Shown here: one piece after another, positions 5,005 to 31,351 of the stretch
Numbering within the stretch: position 1 is the stretch's first letter
Layout: every line of letters begins with the position of its first letter
Source of the DNA: a virus
Length of the DNA: 64,000 bases
IMG/VR virus record: IMGVR_UViG_3300017989_000003
Coordinates: 70,606-134,605 of that record
Reading direction: 5' to 3' (one strand)
Notes under the pieces: generated by a model
What the model was told of the DNA's origin: nothing
Database searches by the model: none
Seen by the model: the letters and a program-made list of their open reading frames with translations, nothing else
Position numbers and translations under genes: made by a program

Positions 5005-6825
5005 ATGTCTAGTAGGATGAAAAATACTGAATGTTTTGATGTGTTTCCTATCGAAGATGATGCAATTCATATAGATGGTGTGGATATTGACGTATCGGCG
5101 TTCTTACGCCATTGTGCCATACTTGGAGCTTCAGGCTCAGGTAAGACGGTAGCAGCTAAAGTATTATGCGAAGAATTCGCCTTGCGTGGAATACCAGTTA
5201 TAGCTGTGGACCCGCAGGGTGACATAGCCTCACTGATGACTATTGGAAATATGGAGGAGGTGTCCAATAAAGGTGGTGATTTAACCGCTTACCGTCTTTT
5301 TAGGGATAAAGTAGATGTTAAGGTGTGGACTCCTGCGTCAAATGCTGGTATTCCCGTATGTGTTAATCCACTGGAACTTGATTTCGATGGAGACAGTATC
5401 CGCAAGATATCAATGGTATCCCAGAATATAGCATCTTTGCTTGGGTATGACCTTAGGAAAGATTCAGGGAAATTTACAGCGGCGTTTTTTGATATGGTTT
5501 TGTCCTATATTTATAGTAAAAAAATTGACATTAAAGATTTTGCGAAGCTTTCGAAATTTATAGTGAATATCCCAGATGCGCTATTAGATGATGTATCTGA
5601 CGTGCTTAATCCTAACGAAATAAAGGACATAGTTCGTAAAATTAAGCTACTGACTATAGGGTCAAAGAGTTTACTTTTTGGTAATGGTACAGCCTTGGAT
5701 ATACCGTCGCTTCTTGGTATTGAGTCCAATAAACCTAGAATATCCGTGATATATTTGAATACATTAGCGTCACAGGAGGAAAAGAACTTTTTTGTATCAC
5801 AGCTAGCTCTGACATTATACAGTTGGATGATGGATAATCCAAGCGACGCTATTCAGGCTGTGTTTTATATTGATGAGATTGCACCATTTTTACCGCCTAC
5901 ATCAAAACCAGCTTCTAAGGATATTTTACGGTTATTGTTTAAGCAAGCTCGAAAGTACGGGATAGGATGTATACTAGCATCACAGAATCCTGGCGATGTT
6001 GACTACAAGTCTATGGCACAAATATCAACTTACTTTCTTGGAAGGATTATGACTGACCAGGACGTAAAGAAGGTAGACCAAGTAATCAAGGCTCTAACGC
6101 CAGACTATAAAGCTGTAACTAGTAGCCTTCCTAAGCTTAAGGTTGGAAATTTTAAGCTTATATCCCCAGACGTGTCCAGAATTGAGAATGTTAAGTTTAG
6201 ATGGCTATATAGTACTCATTCTACATATGACGAGAGTGACTTAGAGGAGTTAGTTAATAAAGAACTCGATATCCCACTGTCTACTAAACCTAAAAGGATA
6301 GCAACGCCTAGAGACTATGAGTTATCACATACTCTACTGCCTGACGATGAAGTTAAATTGTTAATGCCAGTTAAAGAACTTCAGAAAGGTGTTCTTACTA
6401 AGCATTCTCCATTTAATACTGACTATGTAGTTGTTGGAGAGCCGTCCAGTAGTAACATTCATGTTTATATGGTAGTGGTTTTTGACGATATTATGTATTG
6501 TGGGAAATATGGCATTACGTACGTCACAAAGAGAAACAGGTATAAATACTACCCGCTAAGCAAGATAAAGACTCCATTGTTCCTAAGGGTATTTATAGAC
6601 TCTGGGATGTTCATGTGGTACATAAGACCCTCAATGGATTTACCCTCAGTATTTGTGAGTTATTCTGCTGATTCTACATTTTCGTCATTTGATGCATTTA
6701 TAAAGTACGGTATTACTGACAGAGACAAGATTGAGTCTATGGAGGATGGGGATTTTGTAGACTATGAGAACCCAATTTACGTAAATTATATTGAGAATAG
6801 GGATACGAGTAATACCACCTGCTAA
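5005..6825 (+). CDS. HerA/FtsK-superfamily P-loop ATPase (DUF87/DUF853-like)
   Basis: Walker A GASGSGKT, VDPQGD, Walker B FYIDEIA, ARKYG and SQNPGD motifs. Confidence 0.85.
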   Translation: MSSRMKNTECFDVFPIEDDAIHIDGVDIDVSAFLRHCAILGASGSGKTVAAKVLCEEFALRGIPVIAVDPQGDIASLMTIGNMEEVSNKGGDLTAYRLFRDKVDVKVWTPASNAGIPVCVNPLELDFDGDSIRKISMVSQNIASLLGYDLRKDSGKFTAAFFDMVLSYIYSKKIDIKDFAKLSKFIVNIPDALLDDVSDVLNPNEIKDIVRKIKLLTIGSKSLLFGNGTALDIPSLLGIESNKPRISVIYLNTLASQEEKNFFVSQLALTLYSWMMDNPSDAIQAVFYIDEIAPFLPPTSKPASKDILRLLFKQARKYGIGCILASQNPGDVDYKSMAQISTYFLGRIMTDQDVKKVDQVIKALTPDYKAVTSSLPKLKVGNFKLISPDVSRIENVKFRWLYSTHSTYDESDLEELVNKELDIPLSTKPKRIATPRDYELSHTLLPDDEVKLLMPVKELQKGVLTKHSPFNTDYVVVGEPSSSNIHVYMVVVFDDIMYCGKYGITYVTKRNRYKYYPLSKIKTPLFLRVFIDSGMFMWYIRPSMDLPSVFVSYSADSTFSSFDAFIKYGITDRDKIESMEDGDFVDYENPIYVNYIENRDTSNTTC

Positions 6826-12333: not shown

Positions 12334-15140
12334 GGGTTTACGATGAACAGCGAAACGTTTGTCCAGTATGTTAGTAAATTCACAAAGGATTTTAATTACC
12401 CAGTTCTTGAACCATGTGATGTGGTTATACTTGCTGGAAGTGGCACAGCTAACGACCCATTCGAAGCAAAGGTACACACGAATGTTACATTAGTTGGGTT
12501 TGAGACGAATACTTTTATACTCCGAACGCCAATATTTACATATTATTTAGTGTACGTAGCAGACTCTTTTAAGTACGTATCAAAAATACGAGTAAACCAC
12601 AGCAAAGTCTAAGTTCTGAGGTTTACAGGGTTATCAAAGCACATATAACTTAATACCGAAACTAAAACAAGTTGGAAAGCGAGGTGTAAGATGTTTAGGC
12701 ATAAATGTAAAAATTGGCGTTATTGGACATTGACAAATGATACCAGTGTTCTTTTACGGACATGTAAAAAATGTGGAAAAGTCCAACAATGGAAATATGT
12801 CATGTCTCAATATGCGTGGGTTACACAGATTGAATATAAAGAAAATTATGTCATACAATCCCTAATAAACGAAAGCGAGGTGTAAAGTGAATATAACCGA
12901 ATTTCATAAACTAAGGGATAAAATTAACAATGAGGAAATACCATATTTCCCTAATACAATTCAGGGCTATTGTGACGAAAAGGAATTTTTCGCTGTACAA
13001 AGAGCAAAGTTAAATTTAATGGAAGAAGTATTAAAAATAGCTGGAAAATGGCTTGATAGAGAGTTAGAAACAGCAGAAAAACATAGTGCAGGATTATTAA
13101 AACTTGCATTACATGTAAAACAAGACTAAAAGGAGGTGTAAATGACTTTTTGCATAAATTGTGATTCTGAATTTGAAGATGTGTACGAAAAGGGGCTTCA
13201 ACCGTGTCCTTACTGTGGTGCCCTAAATAAGCCATGCGATACTTGTCCAATAATACTAAACCGTGGTTCCTGCTTAGACTGTGAAATAGGAGAAACAAAC
13301 TATGAACAATAACGAAAAAATAGCATCTGATATAATTCACAAGTTTGAGGAACTTCTTGCTGAGAATGGAATAAAGATTCCAAATTCAGAGCGCACTGGT
13401 GATGAAACCGAAGCGTGTATATTCGGGACTGACTATTATGCTCTTGAGTCAGCAATCGCCGACATTCTCTGTATCCGTACTGTATGTACATCATACAAGA
13501 TAGTTATTGTCCAATCTATTACAGGAGATTCCTTGGATGAACAAGAACCTTTTATTGTTCTAGAGAGCGAAGCTGAGAAAATACGTGATTATATTATTGA
13601 ACAGTCTGACGGACGAAATACGTTGGTGGCAATAGCTGAGTTTCAGATGGATAACTGTAGTAACATACGGTGTCTTCACACATACTGTAATCCTCAAGAA
13701 ACATAGAAAGGATACTATGCGTCATTTCTACTATAAAATAAGTAAACGGGCAGTAGGTAGACTAAAAAGGTACTTGATGATTATTGCTGTACGTGTCCAT
13801 ATAAAACAGGGTGGTGAGGCACCACTAACTTATTTACATGAACAGCTAAGTTACGCACTAGAACATTCCCTTGGTTTTGCAATAAGCAAATCAGACATTG
13901 ATAAGTACTTCGCATCAAAGCTTACACTAAAGAATAAGCTTGCGACCTATAGGCATCTAAAAGAATTGGTACAAGAGTATCTAGTAGCTCAGGAAATCAT
14001 ACCAGAAGATTCAGTTATGTTCGATTAACAATAACATTAAGGGGTTGATATGGAATACGAAGTAGTAAAAACTATGATGGTTCAACTAACCGCTAGTGAG
14101 CTAGATAAAGTAGCGAACGAACGCTTAAATTTTGAGGTTAATGATGTTGGCAAGGTTATTTTAGACACTGATGTACTTACAGAAAATTATGAGGATATAA
14201 CCGTGTGGTTTGAGAGGATGATTGCAGAAATAGAGGGTAAGCTACTAAAAGAGTACTGCCAGAACCTTTCTGACATGGAATATTTGTGGTTTTACGTATA
14301 GTACTATGTCCAGTATTAAGGGGAAGATAATGAAAATAATTTGGGAAAACAAAAATTGGGTTATCTTCAAAGATTGTTTCGATACGCATAAGACGATTAA
14401 TGTCCAAAATAAGAGAACTTTTGAGGTTCAGACTCCGATTTTACATGAGAATTCTTATCCTGTTTACTATAGAGTATTATGGGATTTTCCTGAAAGAATA
14501 CCAAAGTACATTAAAGAAAAGGTTAAAATGTACTTCAGACGCTGTTCTTTTATGAAAGATAGAGGGTATTATGTCCAGTAACATTACTGAGAATGGCGCA
14601 ATTACTCTTGCTGATTTTATTGTTAGCCTTAAGAGTGAATATATTCAACTAGAGCTTTTCCCTGATTGTATAGATATTGATAATATCGAGTTCATGTTCT
14701 ATGTTTCTCTTAACATGGTATTCTTCTTTGACTCAGACCGTGAAGTGCCATCATACGCATCTGACGTGTTGGGAAGTATAACTAAAAAGCTATTGCTTTC
14801 TGAATATGAGATTGAGGACGATGAGTACTTTAGGGAGAATGAGTATTATCATAGTGTGACGTTTGATGGTGTATTGTCCAGTAGTGACTTTAAGGTTATG
14901 CTTGAACGCACTGGAATTAGACCACAATGGTCACGCAATGGCGGTATTCTAACTGAAATTGGTATTATTCCTGCCATTAGTTTTGAAGATAGTGACGACA
15001 GCGAAGTTAAATTTAATGCCTATGTAACACCATTATGCACTGAGAGACGTAGGCTGAATTGGGATATTGTCCGAAAACATTTTATTGAGAAGTACGAGTA
15101 AAATACTTGTTGTTGTACTTAATTTTCAAAACTGTGCAAG

Positions 15141-16371: not shown

Positions 16372-16674
16372 ATGAGATATGCAATCGAAATTGATAACTC
16401 TGTAAAGGAGTTCACAAGTCTGGTTACGCTTGCTGGATTCCTTAGAGATAACGGTATATATGAAGTTAAGTATGTGTCTAATGACACGTACAAGTGCAGG
16501 TGTCGGCGCAACAGGTGGAAAGTACTCATTAATATCTGGAGAGAATATGAACTTTCTGGCGAAACAGAGTACTTTACACGAAATGACGAAACTGAGCTTA
16601 ATTTACTTCTTGTACTACTACCAAGTATGTACCGTACAATGCGTAAAGTGACCAAAACAAAAGGGGCGACGTAA
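16372..16674 (+). CDS. hypothetical protein preceding the Ubl operon
   Basis: GGGGG RBS before ATG 16372. Confidence 0.55.
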   Translation: MRYAIEIDNSVKEFTSLVTLAGFLRDNGIYEVKYVSNDTYKCRCRRNRWKVLINIWREYELSGETEYFTRNDETELNLLLVLLPSMYRTMRKVTKTKGAT

Positions 16675-16728
16675 GTAACGTTGCTATTTAATTTACAGAT
16701 TTCTTTATTGTTCAATGGAGGACAAAAA

Positions 16729-17208
16729 ATGGAAAATGCATGGGAAACAGACAGTAACGAAACCAACGAAACCGAAACCAACGAAACCGAAACCAATGTG
16801 ATTTTAACGGTTTCTGGCGGCTCATTTTCGGAACAGGTTCCAGCCCACGAGGCAACTGACGCAATCGAGCGCATCGCATCACGACTCAATCTTGTTGATT
16901 ATATAGTCAAGATTGACGGCGAAGAGAAAGATGTTGATGAAATTGACTTCGAGTCACTTACCAATGGCACGACCATCTCAGTTGAGGCAGACCAGATTCC
17001 AAAAGCGACTTTAAAGGTAGCGGGTGAAGAACCCCGACGTATGCCAGTTGAAGAATTGACCGCCGACTTCGTAAAGTCTGAAGCTCGCAGAAAAGAGTGG
17101 AAACACGCAACAATAAAAAAGAACGGCGTAGTCATTAATAGCCCAAATGACTTCGTTGTTGCGGCAAATGATACTGTAAGCATTGAAGCTTACGTCAAGT
17201 GGGGCTAA
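16729..17208 (+). CDS. ubiquitin-like protein with two tandem beta-grasp (ThiS/MoaD-like) domains and C-terminal Gly
   Basis: GGAGG RBS; two ~65-aa repeats (VKIDG...LTNGTTISV and IKKNG...VAANDTVSI); ends YVKWG; adjacent to E1 and JAB. Confidence 0.75.
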   Translation: MENAWETDSNETNETETNETETNVILTVSGGSFSEQVPAHEATDAIERIASRLNLVDYIVKIDGEEKDVDEIDFESLTNGTTISVEADQIPKATLKVAGEEPRRMPVEELTADFVKSEARRKEWKHATIKKNGVVINSPNDFVVAANDTVSIEAYVKWG

Positions 17209-17219
17209 ACATTTTAATC

Positions 17220-17253
17220 TGGCAGGTAGTTACTACACTACCTGCCATTTTTT
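17220..17253 (+). terminator. intrinsic terminator directly after the Ubl gene
   Basis: TGGCAGGTAGT/ACTACCTGCCA 11-bp stem followed by T6. Confidence 0.75.
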
Positions 17254-17273
17254 TATTTGGGGGAACAAATGTT

Positions 17274-17900
17274 ATGTTGTGGTACATAATAAATATCGAA
17301 AATCCAATCCTGCCAGGTACCAAGAAACTAAATCAAAAAGAAGTATTGGACTATCTGGTAAGAAGCACTGACCAAATTAAAGTGCAGTGTAAATTCCCAT
17401 CTACATCTACTATAAACCTACCAGATGATATTGAGAGCATCAGACGGTTTATGGAACTATCTGACGAAGATAAGCATAAATACGCTTATCTCTCTACGTA
17501 TAGCTCCATTGATACAGACGAGAAGTTTGACACGATAGAGTCTATTGAGATGCTGTCATATTGTACGTCTTTCGGCGAATTTGGGAGGGACATTGTACAA
17601 AAAATGATAGATGATGGGGAACTTCCGTCATATCTTGCGAGTGTTGTCAATGTAGTAGATTTAGTTATAGATAATTTTGATTGCACATCGTCTCCATTTG
17701 GAATATTCGACGTGTCGAATATTAGCCTTAATGACGACGAAGATGAAGATGAAGATGAAGAATATGAGGAGGATTATGCCGAGGATTACGATGAGTATGA
17801 TGATGAACCAGAAGAAGATGAACCAGAAGATGACGATGAAGAAGATGAACCAGAAGATGAACCAGAATTAGCCCCAAATGAAGGTTTTTGGGAAGTTTAA
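17274..17900 (+). CDS. unknown protein with a ~50-residue D/E tail inside the Ubl operon
   Basis: GGGGGA RBS; in frame with ORF 17199-17900. Confidence 0.7.
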   Translation: MLWYIINIENPILPGTKKLNQKEVLDYLVRSTDQIKVQCKFPSTSTINLPDDIESIRRFMELSDEDKHKYAYLSTYSSIDTDEKFDTIESIEMLSYCTSFGEFGRDIVQKMIDDGELPSYLASVVNVVDLVIDNFDCTSSPFGIFDVSNISLNDDEDEDEDEEYEEDYAEDYDEYDDEPEEDEPEDDDEEDEPEDEPELAPNEGFWEV

Positions 17901-17914
17901 CGGGAGGACAAAAA

Positions 17915-18499
17915 ATGGAAAAAGAAGAAATCAAAGAACTTATAAGTGACCAGTTGAGGCAGTGGGAACATTGTGATAACTCTGATGTGGCTCATTGGAT
18001 GGAAAAAGCCGCAACACTTCAATGTCCGATGTTGCATATATACAACTTATGGACATTGCTGTTCCATCACCACTACCGACCAAAATTTGCTACTGAAAAA
18101 CACGGTACGAGCATGTGGGACATATCAAAGTTCTTCCCTACTGGGATTGATATCCTTATAGGCGTACGTTTCACACAAAAAGGTTACTTTGATAGTGTGT
18201 TCTGTTTTCTACCAGACGGAACAAGGTTTCACCACTACCATGGCGGCAGTGGTGACAGCGGGGACTGTATAGGTTCGGTGAAAGTCAATGACATTCCTCA
18301 GTTTACAATGGCTGATGTTGAACTGTTAAAAAATGCGCTGGACGTTGTAGTTGTAAACTCTGTCACTGACGGGTCACCGTCAAACAGAAGTATTGGTGAG
18401 CCATTCCATAACCTACCCAGTGTAGGTCGTTTTGTGGAAATTAGGGATGATGGTGGTGACCCACCTCGCACAATTAGCGCATGGGAGGTGGCATCATGA
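17915..18499 (+). CDS. E2-like (UBC-fold) conjugating enzyme
   Basis: FHHYH-x8-C-IG resembles the bacterial E2 HPH/HPN...C motif; lies between Ubl and E1; ATGA overlap with E1. Confidence 0.55.
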   Translation: MEKEEIKELISDQLRQWEHCDNSDVAHWMEKAATLQCPMLHIYNLWTLLFHHHYRPKFATEKHGTSMWDISKFFPTGIDILIGVRFTQKGYFDSVFCFLPDGTRFHHYHGGSGDSGDCIGSVKVNDIPQFTMADVELLKNALDVVVVNSVTDGSPSNRSIGEPFHNLPSVGRFVEIRDDGGDPPRTISAWEVAS

Positions 18500-19488
18500 G
18501 CACATTAAATCCATTACCCGAATGGTATAATTTTGAGTTTCTCAAAAAGTACCCATATCCTTTATTGCCCTATAACAAACGTTACTTCGCGATGATTCTC
18601 CCAAATGGGAAAGTAACGTTCGACGTTAATCAAAACATCGTCAACATAGAGGGAGAGATTCCTGAAGGAATCAATTTGCGAGATTACTCAAGACAATTTG
18701 ATATGTTCAAGAGAATTCCTGAGAATTTCCTTGTTATTGGCGCTGGTGGAGTTGGTGCGTGGTTTGTTATAACGCTATTGCAAGCGGCGAAGTATGCCAA
18801 GGTCATAGTGTTCGACCATGACGCCATAGAGGAGTCAAATCTTGAACGACTCCCGTATCCGAAGTCATTCGTTGGAGATAACAAAGCGAATTCTCTCAAA
18901 AAATGGGTATGGAACATACTTACTGCAAATATAGTGGCAGTAGATGATATGTTTTACCCAGAGTACTTAGATGATGATACTATGGGCATAACCCCAGATA
19001 TAGTCATCGATTGCTCAGACGATTTTGAGACACAGTTAAGTGTCTACGAGCATTGCTTGAATAACAATATAAGGTTCTTCAAGATAGGTACATTTAGAAA
19101 TTTCGTAGCTATCTCGAGAACTGTTGGGGGCTGGGATTCAGGATTTGACGTTGAAGGAACTTGCGGAAATGGAGTTCCGCAATGGCAAGCTACTCAGATG
19201 CTAGCAGCTGCCCAGCTAGTGTCGTATTTGCTGCGTGACGAGTTTATTCAAACGCAGCTATTCGACGCCGAGATTAAGGATACAAGCCTATTTGATAAAC
19301 ATTATAACCAAATTCTTAGGCTTACAAAGATAACATCAGCTATGCGTACAGCAGAGATGCTGGCAGAAAAGCTAGCTGATATAGGTATTGCAAATGAAGA
19401 ACTCTGTGCAGTGCGGAGTTTATTGTCTAATACATTGACCGAGATGGAGAACAAAAATGAACTGGAAGAAACATCAACCCGTACTTAA
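18496..19488 (+). CDS. E1/ThiF-family activating enzyme
   Basis: DYSRQ arginine finger, GAGGVG, DHDAIEESNLERL, NKA, VIDCSDD, candidate catalytic Cys in EGTCG. Confidence 0.9.
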   Translation: MSTLNPLPEWYNFEFLKKYPYPLLPYNKRYFAMILPNGKVTFDVNQNIVNIEGEIPEGINLRDYSRQFDMFKRIPENFLVIGAGGVGAWFVITLLQAAKYAKVIVFDHDAIEESNLERLPYPKSFVGDNKANSLKKWVWNILTANIVAVDDMFYPEYLDDDTMGITPDIVIDCSDDFETQLSVYEHCLNNNIRFFKIGTFRNFVAISRTVGGWDSGFDVEGTCGNGVPQWQATQMLAAAQLVSYLLRDEFIQTQLFDAEIKDTSLFDKHYNQILRLTKITSAMRTAEMLAEKLADIGIANEELCAVRSLLSNTLTEMENKNELEETSTRT

Positions 19489-20554
19489 TGGTGATGGGTC
19501 TTGGGATACAGGACTCACCGAAGAAAGCCCAGAGGTTAAAGAGTGCGGACACGCAAAGTGTCCAGACGTGAATATAGGTATAACCGTCTTGCGTAAGATG
19601 GACTTGTTAATGGAAAAATACAAGTCTGACGAATGGGCGGCGGACTTAATCGGGTTCTTTGACCCAGATGATAATGAGTACTGGGTTTTAGACTTACGTC
19701 TATTCGAACAAGAGGTTACTGCCTCTAGCGTCGAAAGAAAAGAGCCCGAAGGTGATAGTGTAATTGGCGTAACACACTCCCATCACACAATGGGTGCGTT
19801 TATGTCAGGGACTGACGACGAATACCCGAACAGCAACTACAACCTTTCTGGCGTGGTTTCTAGAAAGACCGACGGACACCACAAGTTAGCGATGAAATTC
19901 TCTATTAGAGTCAAAACTCCTTGTGGATGCTACAGGTACTTTGAGGTCGAAAAGTGGTACATGGCATACCACTACGAGGATTTCGATGTTAAGGAGTTTT
20001 TAGCTCTAGCAGACAAAAAGATTAACAAAAAGACTTACGTTACCAATTTCAATCAATTTAACTATCTTAATCAAATCGGCACGTCATTTAATGTTAAGGC
20101 AAACAATGTGCAACCTGTGTCACCAGTGCAATCACCTGCTTTTGAAGATTATTACGATGAGTGTGACAACTATGACAACTACGGATATTTCGGGCAGAGT
20201 CAAAGCTCTGATGAAGTGTCATGGGACTTAGAGAGCGATGACGACGATGACGATGACGACATAATTGTCGACGATGACGACATACTAGACATAGAGATTT
20301 CGGATACTGTAAGTGACCGAAAAGTTTACTTCCACTTAAAAGACAAAAGACCAATGCTGGTTTATACTCTTATTGAGGATGAATCAGAGGTTGTTGTCAG
20401 AGAAGAAATCAAGTCTATCAATCAATTTGAGGACTTGATTGACTCATTCGCAAGTCGTACGGTTGCCTTCAATGACTTGGAATTAGAGGCTGCTATCGAG
20501 GACTTTTACATGGCGTGTGGAAGTAATACTAGAAATCCTCTTTACGATAAGTAA
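19457..20554 (+). CDS. JAB/JAMM (MPN+) metallo-isopeptidase with acidic C-terminal region
   Basis: Upstream E (DEW) plus HSH-x7-S-x2-D (HSHHTMGAFMSGTD). Confidence 0.9.
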   Translation: MNWKKHQPVLNGDGSWDTGLTEESPEVKECGHAKCPDVNIGITVLRKMDLLMEKYKSDEWAADLIGFFDPDDNEYWVLDLRLFEQEVTASSVERKEPEGDSVIGVTHSHHTMGAFMSGTDDEYPNSNYNLSGVVSRKTDGHHKLAMKFSIRVKTPCGCYRYFEVEKWYMAYHYEDFDVKEFLALADKKINKKTYVTNFNQFNYLNQIGTSFNVKANNVQPVSPVQSPAFEDYYDECDNYDNYGYFGQSQSSDEVSWDLESDDDDDDDDIIVDDDDILDIEISDTVSDRKVYFHLKDKRPMLVYTLIEDESEVVVREEIKSINQFEDLIDSFASRTVAFNDLELEAAIEDFYMACGSNTRNPLYDK

Positions 20555-20576
20555 ATAGTTTATTTGTTCTCCCAAA

Positions 20577-20603
20577 GGGGCTAGTCTATAATGGGCTAGT
20601 CCC
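20577..20603 (+). terminator. hairpin closing the Ubl operon
   Basis: GGGGCTAGTC/GGCTAGTCCC stem with G.U pairs. Confidence 0.45.
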
Positions 20604-20617
20604 TAATCTATTATGAG

Positions 20618-27128: not shown

Positions 27129-27719
27129 ATGCAAAAAAAGAAATACACTAATAATTATGAAGTATCACTAAAAAACTATGACTTGATTTTTAGTGAAAAC
27201 AAAAATCAAGTGTACAAAGTGATAATAGCTAAATCTAGATTATTCGGATTTAGTTATTTTGAGGATTTTTTACAATTGACTAGAATTGCTTTATTTGAAG
27301 CAATCGAAACATACGATGAAACTAGGTCTGCTTTTAATACTTGGTTTTACATTGTACAATCAAAGCATATTGAAATATATATCCGTACATTTATTAAGCG
27401 AGAGAAATCATTTTCTAATACTATTAATGATAATAATGAAAGTGATAACGAAAATCCAAGTCAATTTCAAATACCAGTTTTTGATTTTGATTTAGCGGAT
27501 TTAGAATATAGGAATTTAAGAATATTAAAGTTTAAGAAATTGTTAAAAGCATCGACCACGCCGTACGAGCGTCGATTGCTTTATATGAATATTGTCGATG
27601 AGTTAAACCAACAAGAGATTGCTAATTCATTAAATGTTTCAAGGCAAACCATTTCAATAAGGATACAACGGGCGATAGCCAAGATACGAGAGTCCGCTTG
27701 GTTATATGATTTAAGATAG
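27129..27719 (+). CDS. sigma-70-family RNA polymerase sigma factor (regions 2 and 4)
   Basis: EDFLQ...IALFEAIETYD....FNTW (region 2); LNQQEIANSLNVSRQTIS..IQRAI.KIR (region 4 HTH). Confidence 0.85.
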   Translation: MQKKKYTNNYEVSLKNYDLIFSENKNQVYKVIIAKSRLFGFSYFEDFLQLTRIALFEAIETYDETRSAFNTWFYIVQSKHIEIYIRTFIKREKSFSNTINDNNESDNENPSQFQIPVFDFDLADLEYRNLRILKFKKLLKASTTPYERRLLYMNIVDELNQQEIANSLNVSRQTISIRIQRAIAKIRESAWLYDLR

Positions 27720-30229: not shown

Positions 30230-31351
30230 CTACCCTCGCCTAAAGGCGAGAGCTTCCTGTAAAGTTACAGAACACTCTCTTTCGAGAATGGCTTGTCCCA
30301 AGCAAAATATGTTTTTAGCTGCGTTCACGTCTCTATCTTCTTCATAACTACAAGAACACTTATATCGTCGCTTATGCAATGGCATGTCTTGTTTCTGACC
30401 ACAATTGTTACAAGTCTTTGAAGTATCTTGTGGATTGATTTTTACAAGCGTTTTAGTTTTGTAAGAAAGATAGGATATGAATTTCGCTAATTGAGAATTT
30501 CTTAATTCTCTGTTTAATCCTCTTATTTCAGATTCAGACATTTTCTTCAAAGCAAGGTCTTCGCAAATAATTGTATCGTATTTGGAGGATAGGTTTTTTG
30601 AAACCTTATGCAAAAAATCATTAATTTTACGATTCTTTACATCATACAATCTTTGAATAACCTCGCTCAAAAATCTAAAATATCTTGACCCCTTTTTACA
30701 TTGCGTATCCCTCCTTGATTTAAGTTTATTGATTTTCTTATCAAAATATTTTGCGTGTGTTTTATTTTTGATAATTTTACTCTCTGATGTTGCTACAAGA
30801 TTTGTTATACCGACATCTATCCCAATAATGCCGTTACCTAATTTCTCTTTTTCGTAGTCGGTTGTTATACAAAGAAACCATTTATTATTTTCACACTTAA
30901 TAGTTACTGTTTTGATGTTTCCTTGAATATCCCTGTGTCTATTGAATTTCACATCTCCATAAATTTTTGTATGGAAAATATTACCTTGAATCGAATAACC
31001 CGATTGAGGATAAATTATACTGAAGAAATTACGACAACTTCTAAATTTAGGAAACCCTGCTTTTTTACCGCACTTAACCCTACGGAAAAAATTTTTATAT
31101 GAAATATCTAATCTGTAGGTTACCTGTTGGACAACCTGACTGTGAATTTCAGCTAAAACGGGGTCTTTAGATTTCAATTCAGGTATTTGCTTTTGCAAAT
31201 CATATCTTGATAAACTCGTTTTGTCTTTTTTATATGCTTCGATTTTTTGATTTAGAAAATAATTATACAACCAATTGAGCTTATTGGCATGAAACCACAA
31301 CTGGCTTTGCTGTTCTTTTGAAGGATGCAACCTAAACTTATAAGTTATCAT
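30230..31351 (-). CDS. tnpB: RNA-guided nuclease TnpB
   Basis: [31 protein letters not shown]. Confidence 0.95.

Follow-up and report, generated by a model that had tools for sequence, protein, structure and literature searches.

The locus is a compact operon of about 3.9 kb, located in the genome of an uncultured complete phage of ~155 kb. Its five separate genes encode, in this order, a ubiquitin-like (Ubl) tag, an acidic orphan protein, a 194-aa candidate carrier (E2) enzyme, a putative minimal E1 enzyme, and a putative JAB peptidase (Table 1). The source record (IMGVR_UViG_3300017989_000003 of IMG/VR) is 155,386 bp long, has direct terminal repeats and a CheckV completeness of 100%, and carries tail-fibre and baseplate genes, in agreement with the first-pass annotation, which had taken the contig for a phage. 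All coordinates are positions in the window, the stretch of 64,000 nt of this record that was analysed. The five co-oriented genes previously claimed at 16729-20554 are all present as ORFs on the + strand. They are tightly packed, with Shine-Dalgarno-led starts, an ATGA overlap between the genes of the E2 candidate and the E1, and a 32-nt overlap between those of the E1 and the JAB protein. The cassette is surrounded by small ORFans, typical of accessory regions. In profile searches covering the whole phage genome, ThiF and JAB each occurred once, and a canonical UQ_con was found nowhere else in it. Copies of the cassette found in other samples were all identical to the present one.

Table 1. 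Genes and sequence features of the cassette, in window coordinates
Feature	Position	Strand	Basis or detail
Weak terminator-like hairpin	16665..16685	+	8 pairs, then A/T-rich tail
Translation-initiation region of tag gene	16717..16736	+	Shine-Dalgarno GGAGGA, A-rich spacer, ATG
Predicted ubiquitin-like tag, 159 aa	16729..17208	+	AF2 fold, Foldseek, Atlas, BFVD
Intrinsic-terminator-like hairpin	17220..17257	+	11-bp stem, 6-nt loop, then TTTTTTTATT; 12 nt past tag stop
Orphan acidic protein, 208 aa	17274..17900	+	ORF; start from hairpin and GGGGGA Shine-Dalgarno
E2 candidate, 194 aa	17915..18499	+	Conserved His/Cys block; one relative
Putative minimal E1, 330 aa	18496..19488	+	Pfam ThiF; motifs; ATGA coupling
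Putative JAB/JAMM metallopeptidase, 365 aa	19457..20554	+	Prok-JAB; JAMM residues; overlaps E1 gene by 32 nt
13-bp hairpin	20576..20604	+	22 nt past JAB stop; tail not T-rich

The product of the first gene starts with a low-complexity stretch of acidic residues, Thr and Asn, encoded by a 15-nt tandem repeat, followed by two beta-grasp domains (~residues 23-87 and 92-154). Such a two-domain protein ending in VKWG had been anticipated, with AlphaFold and Foldseek named as the check. The AF2 model (pLDDT 79.2) indeed displayed two beta-beta-alpha-beta-beta(-beta) units, and its best Foldseek matches in the PDB were ISG15 and linear di-ubiquitin (E 9e-7, probability 1.0). A shape search of the ESM Atlas listed a ThiS-family cluster first and gave polyubiquitin-like matches at TM 0.51/0.52, and the matches in BFVD were phage and giant-virus Ubl proteins. 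Sequence searches found no relatives of the tag, and Pfam gave no ThiS/MoaD match to it. The protein does end in ...VKWG, with the stop codon directly after the Gly (G159). The modelled fold identifies it as a ubiquitin-like tandem beta-grasp modifier with an exposed C-terminal Gly, and because the tag already ends in Gly, it should need no processing by the JAB peptidase.

The first-pass annotation had also pointed out that the tag and E2-candidate genes share an identical 20-nt translation start. This sequence, GGAGGACAAAAAATGGAAAA, occurs in exactly two copies, at 16717 and 17903, against 0 expected by shuffling; the copies are the starts of these two genes, and no further close copy was found elsewhere in the window. 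The weak hairpin upstream of the tag gene may be the 5′ boundary of the cassette, and the one past the JAB gene is likely the 3′ boundary of the operon. The hairpin that follows the tag gene has a folding energy of -20 kcal/mol (z = -4.2), and 0 of 200 shuffled sequences fold as well. We propose that it acts as an attenuator which raises the tag over the enzymes; since a terminator hairpin follows its gene, the tag is probably in excess over them.

Judged from the hairpin and the GGGGGA Shine-Dalgarno, the most likely start of the acidic gene is the ATG at 17274, past the terminator hairpin, which revises its start; gene prediction in another sample also yields 208 aa. Its product has a globular N-terminal region and ends in ~50 Asp/Glu residues, in line with the acidic protein described previously. 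No match to this protein was found in Pfam, PHROG, PADLOC, NCBIfam, or the Atlas, and it is a candidate adaptor or substrate.

The overlaps noted earlier among the last three genes were retained (4 nt and 32 nt), and the E1 start was moved: it most likely lies at 18496, not 18481, because that ATG overlaps the stop codon of the E2 candidate as ATGA and is preceded by the Shine-Dalgarno GGGAGGTG. Gene callers likewise give 330 aa. Pfam ThiF matched the protein once, at residues 83-205 (E=1.8e-17, 63.8 bits against a cut-off of 28.1; 64 bits in the genome search). The RQ finger, GxGxxG, SNLxR, and Cys in GTCG previously attributed to a ThiF enzyme were recovered among its motifs, namely SRQ, GAGGVG, SNLER, NKA, IDCSDD, and the Cys in GTCG. 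R71 (Arg finger), G87-G92 (P-loop), N120/R123 (SNLxR), K135 (catalytic Lys), and D177 (Mg-binding Asp) were invariant in the alignment with relatives. By these motifs, we assign the protein to the E1-like superfamily (ThiF/MoeB/UBA, PF00899). Its ThiF-type adenylation domain is flanked by an N-terminal extension of ~60 aa, conserved in L010, and a C-terminal extension of ~70 aa; as extensions of 60-70 aa are too short to hold them, the enzyme lacks both a second adenylation-like domain and an inserted Cys domain. Where the crossover loop is expected, the sole Cys is C237 (335-aa numbering), a candidate residue that the nearest relatives do not share. The only PADLOC matches in the cassette were those of the E1 to E1-E2 models, limited to the adenylation part (E ~1e-8). 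Its sequence matches in the PDB were TcdA, UBA5, Cap2, and MccB (E 6e-5 to 4e-3), and its best NCBIfam rows were ThiF, UbaA, and MoeB, all far below their cut-offs (best equivalog 46.6 vs 275 bits).

The JAB protein consists of a JAB domain (~residues 36-180), a poly-Asp linker, and an uncharacterised C-terminal domain. The full JAMM motif claimed for it is complete, comprising E59, H107-x-H109, S117, and D120. Prok-JAB scored 23.9 bits (E 4e-5) on the whole protein and 26.1 bits in the six-frame genome search, above the cut-off of 25, and the JAB family PRTRC_A matched with an E of 2.9e-4. By motif and profile, the protein belongs to the JAB/JAMM (MPN+) metallopeptidases.

The earlier reading of the cassette as tandem-Ubl/unknown/E2/E1/JAB stood for the tag, the E1, and the JAB protein. 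For the E2 it is neither demonstrated nor refuted, and fold, profile, and sequence searches gave no significant E2 match. The 194-aa protein does carry the HYH-x8-C reported previously, in the form FHHYH-x8-C. An exhaustive search of ~1.8 billion representatives retrieved one relative, P0010 (30% identity, E 5.9e-11), whose gene lies upstream of a homologue of the E1 N-terminus and which keeps the HYH-x8-C block. Their alignment defines the conserved block LPxGxRFxHYHxG-x5-DCIG, in which C118 is the candidate for the active-site Cys, and the two proteins share a UBC-like succession of secondary-structure elements. Those predicted for the E2 candidate run from two helices through five strands to the His/Cys loop and a helix 14 residues past the Cys; its spacings are E2-like (His-to-Cys 9, Cys-to-helix 14), with the element order taken from a poor AF2 model (pLDDT 44). 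With this model, Foldseek returned a best E of 0.25 and no significant E2/UEV match, and VIA returned best Z-scores of 4.7 and 3.6, with TSG101 UEV and Cap2 only at 2.5-2.6 and none of them significant. No E2 family match was found in Pfam, NCBIfam, PADLOC, or PDB sequences. Both hhalign and BLASTP placed the HYH..C of this protein on the HPN..C of related loci, without significance. The pattern C97-x9-HxH-x8-C118 can alternatively be read as a metal site. From its sequence, the 194-aa protein may be a carrier enzyme.

Based on these findings, we favor, with moderate confidence, the reading that the phage has a ubiquitin-like protein-modification module of its own, made of tag, E1, E2-like carrier, JAB peptidase, and accessory acidic protein. 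The ISG15-like tag would be synthesised with its C-terminal Gly ready for use and in no need of processing and, by way of the terminator hairpin past its gene, probably in excess over the enzymes. The minimal ThiF-type E1 would adenylate the Gly of the tag, which would then be passed, possibly via Cys237 of the E1, to Cys118 of the 194-aa protein in a presumed thioester. Acting as a very divergent E2-like carrier, this protein would deliver the tag to target lysines in the infected cell, while the JAB peptidase would reverse or edit the conjugates and the acidic protein would be an accessory factor, whether adaptor, substrate, or regulator. We lean towards a pro-phage role, in which host or phage proteins would be modified during infection. 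The roles suggested in the first-pass annotation, namely modification of host or defence proteins or the jamming of host Bil/CBASS conjugation, are speculative.

A doubtful but still credible alternative is a system free of E2, like archaeal SAMP/UbaA/JAMM or Thermus TtuB/TtuC. Both the activation of the tag and its transfer to targets would then fall to the E1, with reversal by the JAB peptidase, and the 194-aa and acidic proteins would serve as targets or adaptors, or bind metal in an unrelated role. In its favor, there is support for the tag, the E1, and the JAB individually while no search finds an E2, the E1 is of the minimal single-domain type of UbaA and MoeB, and C97, H107, H109, and C118 could form a metal site. 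However, the ATGA overlap couples translation of the 194-aa gene to that of the E1 gene, the sole relative of the 194-aa protein also adjoins an E1 homologue, its most conserved block has the E2-like His-to-Cys and Cys-to-helix spacing, and distant E1/JAB loci have HPN-Cys proteins in the same place, all of which speaks against this alternative. We regard as rather unlikely that the same chemistry is defence cargo, tagging and disabling the virion proteins of competing phages in a Bil-like superinfection exclusion. Among Ubl+E2+E1+JAB sets with an ISG15-like tag, function has been characterised only for those of Bil, an anti-phage system that tags the phage tail fibre (10.1101/2023.09.04.556158; PMC11601596), and small ORFans such as those next to the cassette are typical of accessory regions; yet the architecture is unlike that of Bil and has no IAD-AAD-CYS E1, PADLOC defence models match only as Cap2-type E1 fragments, and no regulator of the CapW or CapH/CapP type was seen among the neighbours. 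That nothing is tagged, and that the cassette instead encodes a sulfur carrier (ThiS/MoaD/CysO type, with a Mec+-like JAB) or an MccB-like peptide adenylation for cofactor, thionucleoside, or antibiotic synthesis, is highly improbable: the ThiF, UbaA, and MoeB rows, the MccB and TcdA matches of the E1, and the ThiS-family cluster heading the Atlas search of the tag point that way, but the family scores are far below their cut-offs, rhodanese, ThiG/ThiH, MoaE, CysM, and tRNA-thiolase genes were not found among the neighbours, and the tag is two-domain and ISG15-like, unlike single-domain sulfur carriers, and already ends in the Gly that makes JAB processing unneeded. The sulfur-transfer context was earlier said to be absent, and no thiamine, Moco, or cysteine genes were found among the ten neighbours checked.

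A bolder and less probable reading is a conjugation pathway owned by a lytic-type phage, which would combine a minimal E1, an ISG15-like tag, a previously unrecognised carrier family (two members among ~1.8 billion representatives, being either an extreme UBC derivative or non-UBC), and an acidic adaptor directing the tag onto host or defence proteins. If true, a virus would here be using for offence a chemistry that bacteria are known to use only in antiviral defence. To our knowledge, prokaryotic ubiquitin-like conjugation (Bil, Bub, CBASS Cap2) is currently read as a means by which hosts resist phages. A kit owned by a virus would show the same chemistry used from the phage side, and would raise the testable question of what is tagged and why. 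Being compact, complete, and equipped with a ready Gly terminus and a mutable candidate catalytic Cys, the cassette lends itself well to experimental tests. Its carrier-enzyme family may be new, and its internal terminator may be an example of how the dosage of a tag is set above that of its enzymes.

The closest kin of the cassette are uncultured phage-like contigs with a layout of Ubl, HPN-Cys protein, E1, and JAB. In the loci L005-L009 and L072, the E1 is 33% identical to ours over the adenylation core, and a protein with an E2-like HPN-x7-C or HSH-x9-C is encoded upstream of it. L005-L009 share the order seen here (small tag candidate, Cys-motif protein, E1, JAB), while L072 has the Cys-motif protein followed by JAB and then E1; the JAB of L005 matches that of the cassette by BLASTP (E 2e-6). 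The candidate tag of L005 is a single domain of 82 aa and would need trimming because it ends in ...AGE, whereas the cassette tag is two-domain and ends in Gly. The Cys-motif proteins of these contigs are larger (371-445 aa vs 194 aa) and have a canonical-looking HPN-x7-C, with no match among the E2 families searched; their E1s (203-222 aa) lack both extensions and the Cys, and the acidic protein is missing. Our literature search found no paper on phage-borne Ubl cassettes, of which the present one is a very divergent example.

Among known systems, Bil Types I and II comprise BilA (Ubl), BilB (E2), BilC (JAB), and BilD (E1), corresponding to class 6d of Iyer et al. 2006 (PMC1779556; 10.1101/2023.09.26.559546; 10.1101/2023.09.04.556158). 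In both Bil and the cassette, a multi-beta-grasp tag ending in Gly, a JAB, an E1, and an E2 (here a candidate) are each encoded by a gene of their own, and there is no E3; an extra fast-evolving operon protein also has a precedent in class 6d. BilD is a multidomain IAD-AAD-CYS E1 (PMC11601596), whereas the cassette E1, with 330 aa and a single ThiF domain, does not fit this architecture, by which Bil is defined. The cassette further differs from Bil in being phage-borne rather than in a host defence island, in gene order, and in the terminator between the tag gene and the enzymes. PADLOC 2.0 gave no match for the tag, the E2 candidate, or the JAB, and the Bil components were compared by description only.

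Bub systems encode Ubl-E2 and JAB-E1 fusions or an E2-E1 fusion, together with a DUF6527 serine protease (BubE), and use oxyester (Ser) intermediates (PMC11601596). A Ubl with 1-3 beta-grasp domains and an operon uniting E1, E2 (here a candidate), and peptidase are reminiscent of them (6E/DUF6527), but we rejected membership given five unfused genes and no DUF6527 or other Pfam match on the two orphan proteins. PRTRC was likewise rejected (ThiF TIGR03736, 26.8 vs 144.75 bits; JAB-like protein A TIGR03735, 20.5 vs 101.8 bits; no ParB-like neighbour). In Type II CBASS, Cap2 is an E2-E1 fusion encoded beside a CD-NTase and an effector, Cap3 is a JAB, and the C-terminus of the cyclase is the substrate. 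The E1 core matches Cap2 (PADLOC, PDB) and a JAB partner is present; this membership was rejected as well, there being no fusion, no CD-NTase among the neighbours, and a dedicated Ubl as presumed substrate.

The SAMP/UbaA/HvJAMM1 and TtuB/TtuC systems of archaea and bacteria are cellular, lack an E2, have tags of a single domain, and serve sulfur transfer as well. The cassette resembles them in its minimal single-domain E1, its beta-grasp tag ending in Gly, and its JAMM peptidase, but the E1 scores only 40.5 against the 450-bit cut-off of the UbaA model. A ThiF/MoeB sulfur-carrier pathway was rejected on 46.6 vs 275 bits, no ThiS/MoaD Pfam on the tag, and no pathway genes nearby. Finally, lambdoid and T1 phages encode the tail-assembly proteins TAPI (Ubl) and TAPK (JAB+NlpC) inside the tail module, without E1 or E2 (PMC1779556). 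The cassette shares with them a phage-encoded beta-grasp protein accompanied by a JAB peptidase, but it lies among early/accessory ORFans and includes an E1.

The ubiquitin-like protein (the tag), the E1 and the JAB encoded by this cassette very probably form a phage-encoded modification module, and we lean slightly towards a fuller model in which the 194-aa protein acts as its carrier enzyme. The first-pass annotation had proposed a phage-borne protein-tagging operon with a double beta-grasp tag, an E2 of UBC fold, a ThiF enzyme and a protein with a full JAMM motif. Its five co-oriented ORFs were all found on the + strand, and the tag, the E1, the JAB and the viral origin were borne out by the evidence described here; the UBC fold and the E2 assignment were not.

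The source is a phage and not a cellular chromosome, since the IMG/VR record (155,386 bp, of which the window spans bases 70606-134605) is a complete virus record with direct terminal repeats and a CheckV completeness of 100%, and since tail-fibre and baseplate genes are present in the window. One tail-fibre domain displayed 60% identity to its Methylophilales and Synechococcus myophage counterparts. The window also encodes a Dam methylase, a HerA-like ATPase and a sigma factor. At least four other samples yielded contigs with a copy of the cassette at 100% identity. Upstream of the cassette, 172 bp are absent from a contig of another sample (L091) in which both flanks are 100% identical; this difference is an indel polymorphism within the ORFan region. 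Elsewhere in the window, a 606-aa protein displayed a HerA/DUF87 ATPase match at its N-terminus and a match to the PHROG terminase large-subunit family limited to a short internal segment (residues 283-367), for which reason it may be mosaic or hold an inserted element. The sigma factor gene lies near a switch from + to - strand genes, and a transposase gene was also detected inside the phage genome.

Features of the cassette and of the surrounding phage genome (window coordinates)
Feature	Position	Strand	Remarks
606-aa protein gene	5005-6825	+	
Indel region	13972-14143		
Tag gene	16729-17208	+	159 aa
Hairpin 3' of tag gene	12 bases past tag stop codon		11-bp G+C-rich stem, then TTTTTTTATT
Acidic-protein gene	start ATG 17274 (most likely)	+	
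194-aa protein gene	17915-18499	+	E2 candidate
E1 gene	start ATG 18496 (most likely)	+	
JAB gene	start 19457	+	GGAGAA upstream; 32-nt overlap with E1 gene
Hairpin 3' of JAB gene	past JAB stop		13-bp stem
Sigma-70 family factor gene	27129-27719	+	regions 2 and 4
Transposase gene	30230-31351	-	phrog_506, E 1.4e-80

The 20-nt initiation region GGAGGACAAAAAATGGAAAA, which had been described as common to the tag and 194-aa genes, indeed occurs in exactly two copies, one ahead of each of these genes, with 0 expected by chance; no further close copy was found in the window. Two gene starts were corrected to their most likely positions. That of the E1 gene was chosen because of its ATGA overlap with the upstream stop, the GGGAGGTG found 5' of the ATG, and the gene callers of other samples, which give 330 aa; for the acidic protein, gene callers give 208 aa. 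For the hairpin that follows the tag gene, the folding energy is -20 kcal/mol (z = -4.2), a stability that was not reached in any of 200 shuffles. We infer that this hairpin attenuates transcription, which would keep the consumable tag in excess over the four downstream proteins. An Rfam search of the cassette region returned no match. Short tandem DNA repeats, built of 6- to 27-nt units, encode the acidic tails of both the 208-aa protein (17731-17867) and the JAB linker (20236-20281); slippage may thus alter the length of each tail. Comparable acidic tracts at G000:C1:43691-46340 resemble this DNA, with a 70-74% match.

Searches for sequence relatives of the tag, or for a family match, returned none, and it was therefore modelled from a single sequence. 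The resulting AF2 model is confident (pLDDT 79.2) and comprises one beta-grasp unit at residues 23-87, followed by a second at 92-154. The best Foldseek matches in the PDB were ISG15 and linear di-ubiquitin (E 9e-7, probability 1.0), with 77 rows below 1e-3; a differing inter-domain angle accounts for the low TM-scores of these matches. A shape search of the ESM Atlas recovered a polyubiquitin-like cluster (TM 0.51/0.52 over 134 residues), along with ThiS-family clusters, and BFVD matches comprised uncharacterised phage proteins and giant-virus ubiquitins. Residues 1-22 are a Glu/Thr/Asn repeat derived from a 15-nt tandem repeat, while the C-terminus reads ...VKWG with the stop codon immediately after the Gly; as the protein already ends at this Gly, no trimming is needed.

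The E1 displayed a Pfam ThiF score of 63.8 bits, and the Arg finger, GxGxxG, SNLxR, Lys and Mg-binding Asp are all invariant between it and its few relatives. Its closest solved sequences are TcdA, UBA5, Cap2 and MccB, and in PADLOC it matches Cap2-type E1-E2 models over their adenylation part only. Scores against the equivalog models ThiF, MoeB, UbaA and PRTRC ThiF all fell far under the cut-offs. The enzyme is minimal, with one domain and with N- and C-terminal extensions, the former being kept (31% over 71 residues) in the sole other contig with a relative of the 194-aa protein. When the E1 dimer and the C-terminal beta-grasp domain of the tag were predicted as a complex, the score was 0.14 relative to a mark of 0.32, which speaks neither for nor against binding. 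The JAB carries the complete motif E59 / H107-x-H109 / S117 / D120 and matched Prok-JAB above the cut-off in the six-frame search (26.1 bits; 23.9 bits in the whole-protein scan), while PDB sequence and profile searches with it were uninformative. Exactly one ThiF and one JAB are encoded in the genome.

The nearest E1 relatives (33% identity) are on phage-like metagenome contigs, in the order 82-aa protein ending ...AGE, 371-374-aa protein, 203-aa ThiF and JAB. There, the 371-374-aa protein has the C-terminus FHPN-x7-CLGEL (hereafter HPN-Cys protein), and the JAB matches that of the window at E 2e-6. A variant order was observed at L072:2805-6053, with a 445-aa protein (AHSH-x9-CLGD) followed by a 469-aa JAB (HSHNSMETFFSGTD) and a 222-aa ThiF. 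The E1 alignment also recovered 80 loci of a separate, much larger IMG/VR family (L011-L090), many on contigs of 90-95 kb. Most of these encode a ThiF of ~185 aa and a JAB of ~190 aa (HTHPFGxAYFSGTD) at most 2 kb apart, and 65 loci also encode a conserved ~400-aa protein in which the Cys of W.GPICIDN is invariant; this protein has neither a PDB nor a Pfam match. In both loci that were read (L011, L017; L011:3743-7874), a TFIIB-like zinc-ribbon/cyclin gene lies between ThiF and JAB, a hint that this family may belong to archaeal viruses. Among the cultured phages of INPHARED, there was no detectable relative of the window E1 or of the 194-aa protein; the sole E1 matches were ygdL/moeB genes in 'Acinetobacter phage MD-2021a' records, which look like host-type genes.

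The 194-aa protein is the weak link of the carrier-enzyme model. When 1.84 billion representatives were searched exhaustively with HMMER, only one relative emerged (P0010; 30% identity, E 5.9e-11), on a 1-kb contig whose adjoining downstream gene encodes the E1 N-terminal extension. The best-kept block between the two is LPxGxRFxHYHxG-x5-DCIG, which is in keeping with an E2. A word-index search returned only the self-match, an ESM Atlas search no usable match, and tblastn against 50,697 phage records none; viral and metagenome contigs, scanned at the DNA level with a degenerate motif, contained 0 matches, and a locus search with the alignment of the two sequences found none. In the AF2 model, helices and a run of strands precede the His/Cys loop, and another helix follows 14 residues past the Cys; the predicted elements have the order and spacing of a UBC core. 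Since its pLDDT was only 44 and neither Foldseek nor VIA returned a significant match, the UBC fold is kept as a candidate only. The best Foldseek match in the PDB had an E-value of 0.25, with UBE2H, TSG101 UEV and Cap2 only at E near 1. VIA-wide, the top Z was 4.7 with no E2 among the matches, and a second look gave TSG101 UEV at Z 2.6 and the Cap2 E2 domain at Z 2.5, with unrelated rows higher. Alignments by hhalign to the HPN-Cys proteins (E 0.39) and to the marine GPICIDN family (E 0.23) were not significant; BLASTP and hhalign alike placed HYH..C on HPN..C, again without significance. Canonical UQ_con was absent across the phage genome, and Pfam searches to E 10 found no E2 family for the 194-aa, HPN-Cys or GPICIDN proteins. 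PDB profile and sequence searches with the latter two were empty, and no link of the GPICIDN family to the 194-aa protein or any solved E2 was found by hhalign, PDB or Pfam.

Our literature search, necessarily partial, found no paper on a phage-encoded cassette of Ubl, E1 (with or without E2) and JAB; operon classes and a lambdoid TAPI/TAPK pair are listed by Iyer et al. 2006 (PMC1779556). Among the known systems, Bub consists of fusion proteins and a DUF6527 protease and works via oxyester intermediates, Cap2 of CBASS is an E2-E1 fusion, and Bil comprises BilA, BilB, BilC and a multidomain IAD-AAD-CYS BilD (PMC11601596, PMC11601603, 10.1101/2023.09.26.559546). The cassette lacks the defining features of Bub, of PRTRC and of CBASS. 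Bil is the closest to it in predicted working, although the cassette departs from the E1 architecture of Bil.
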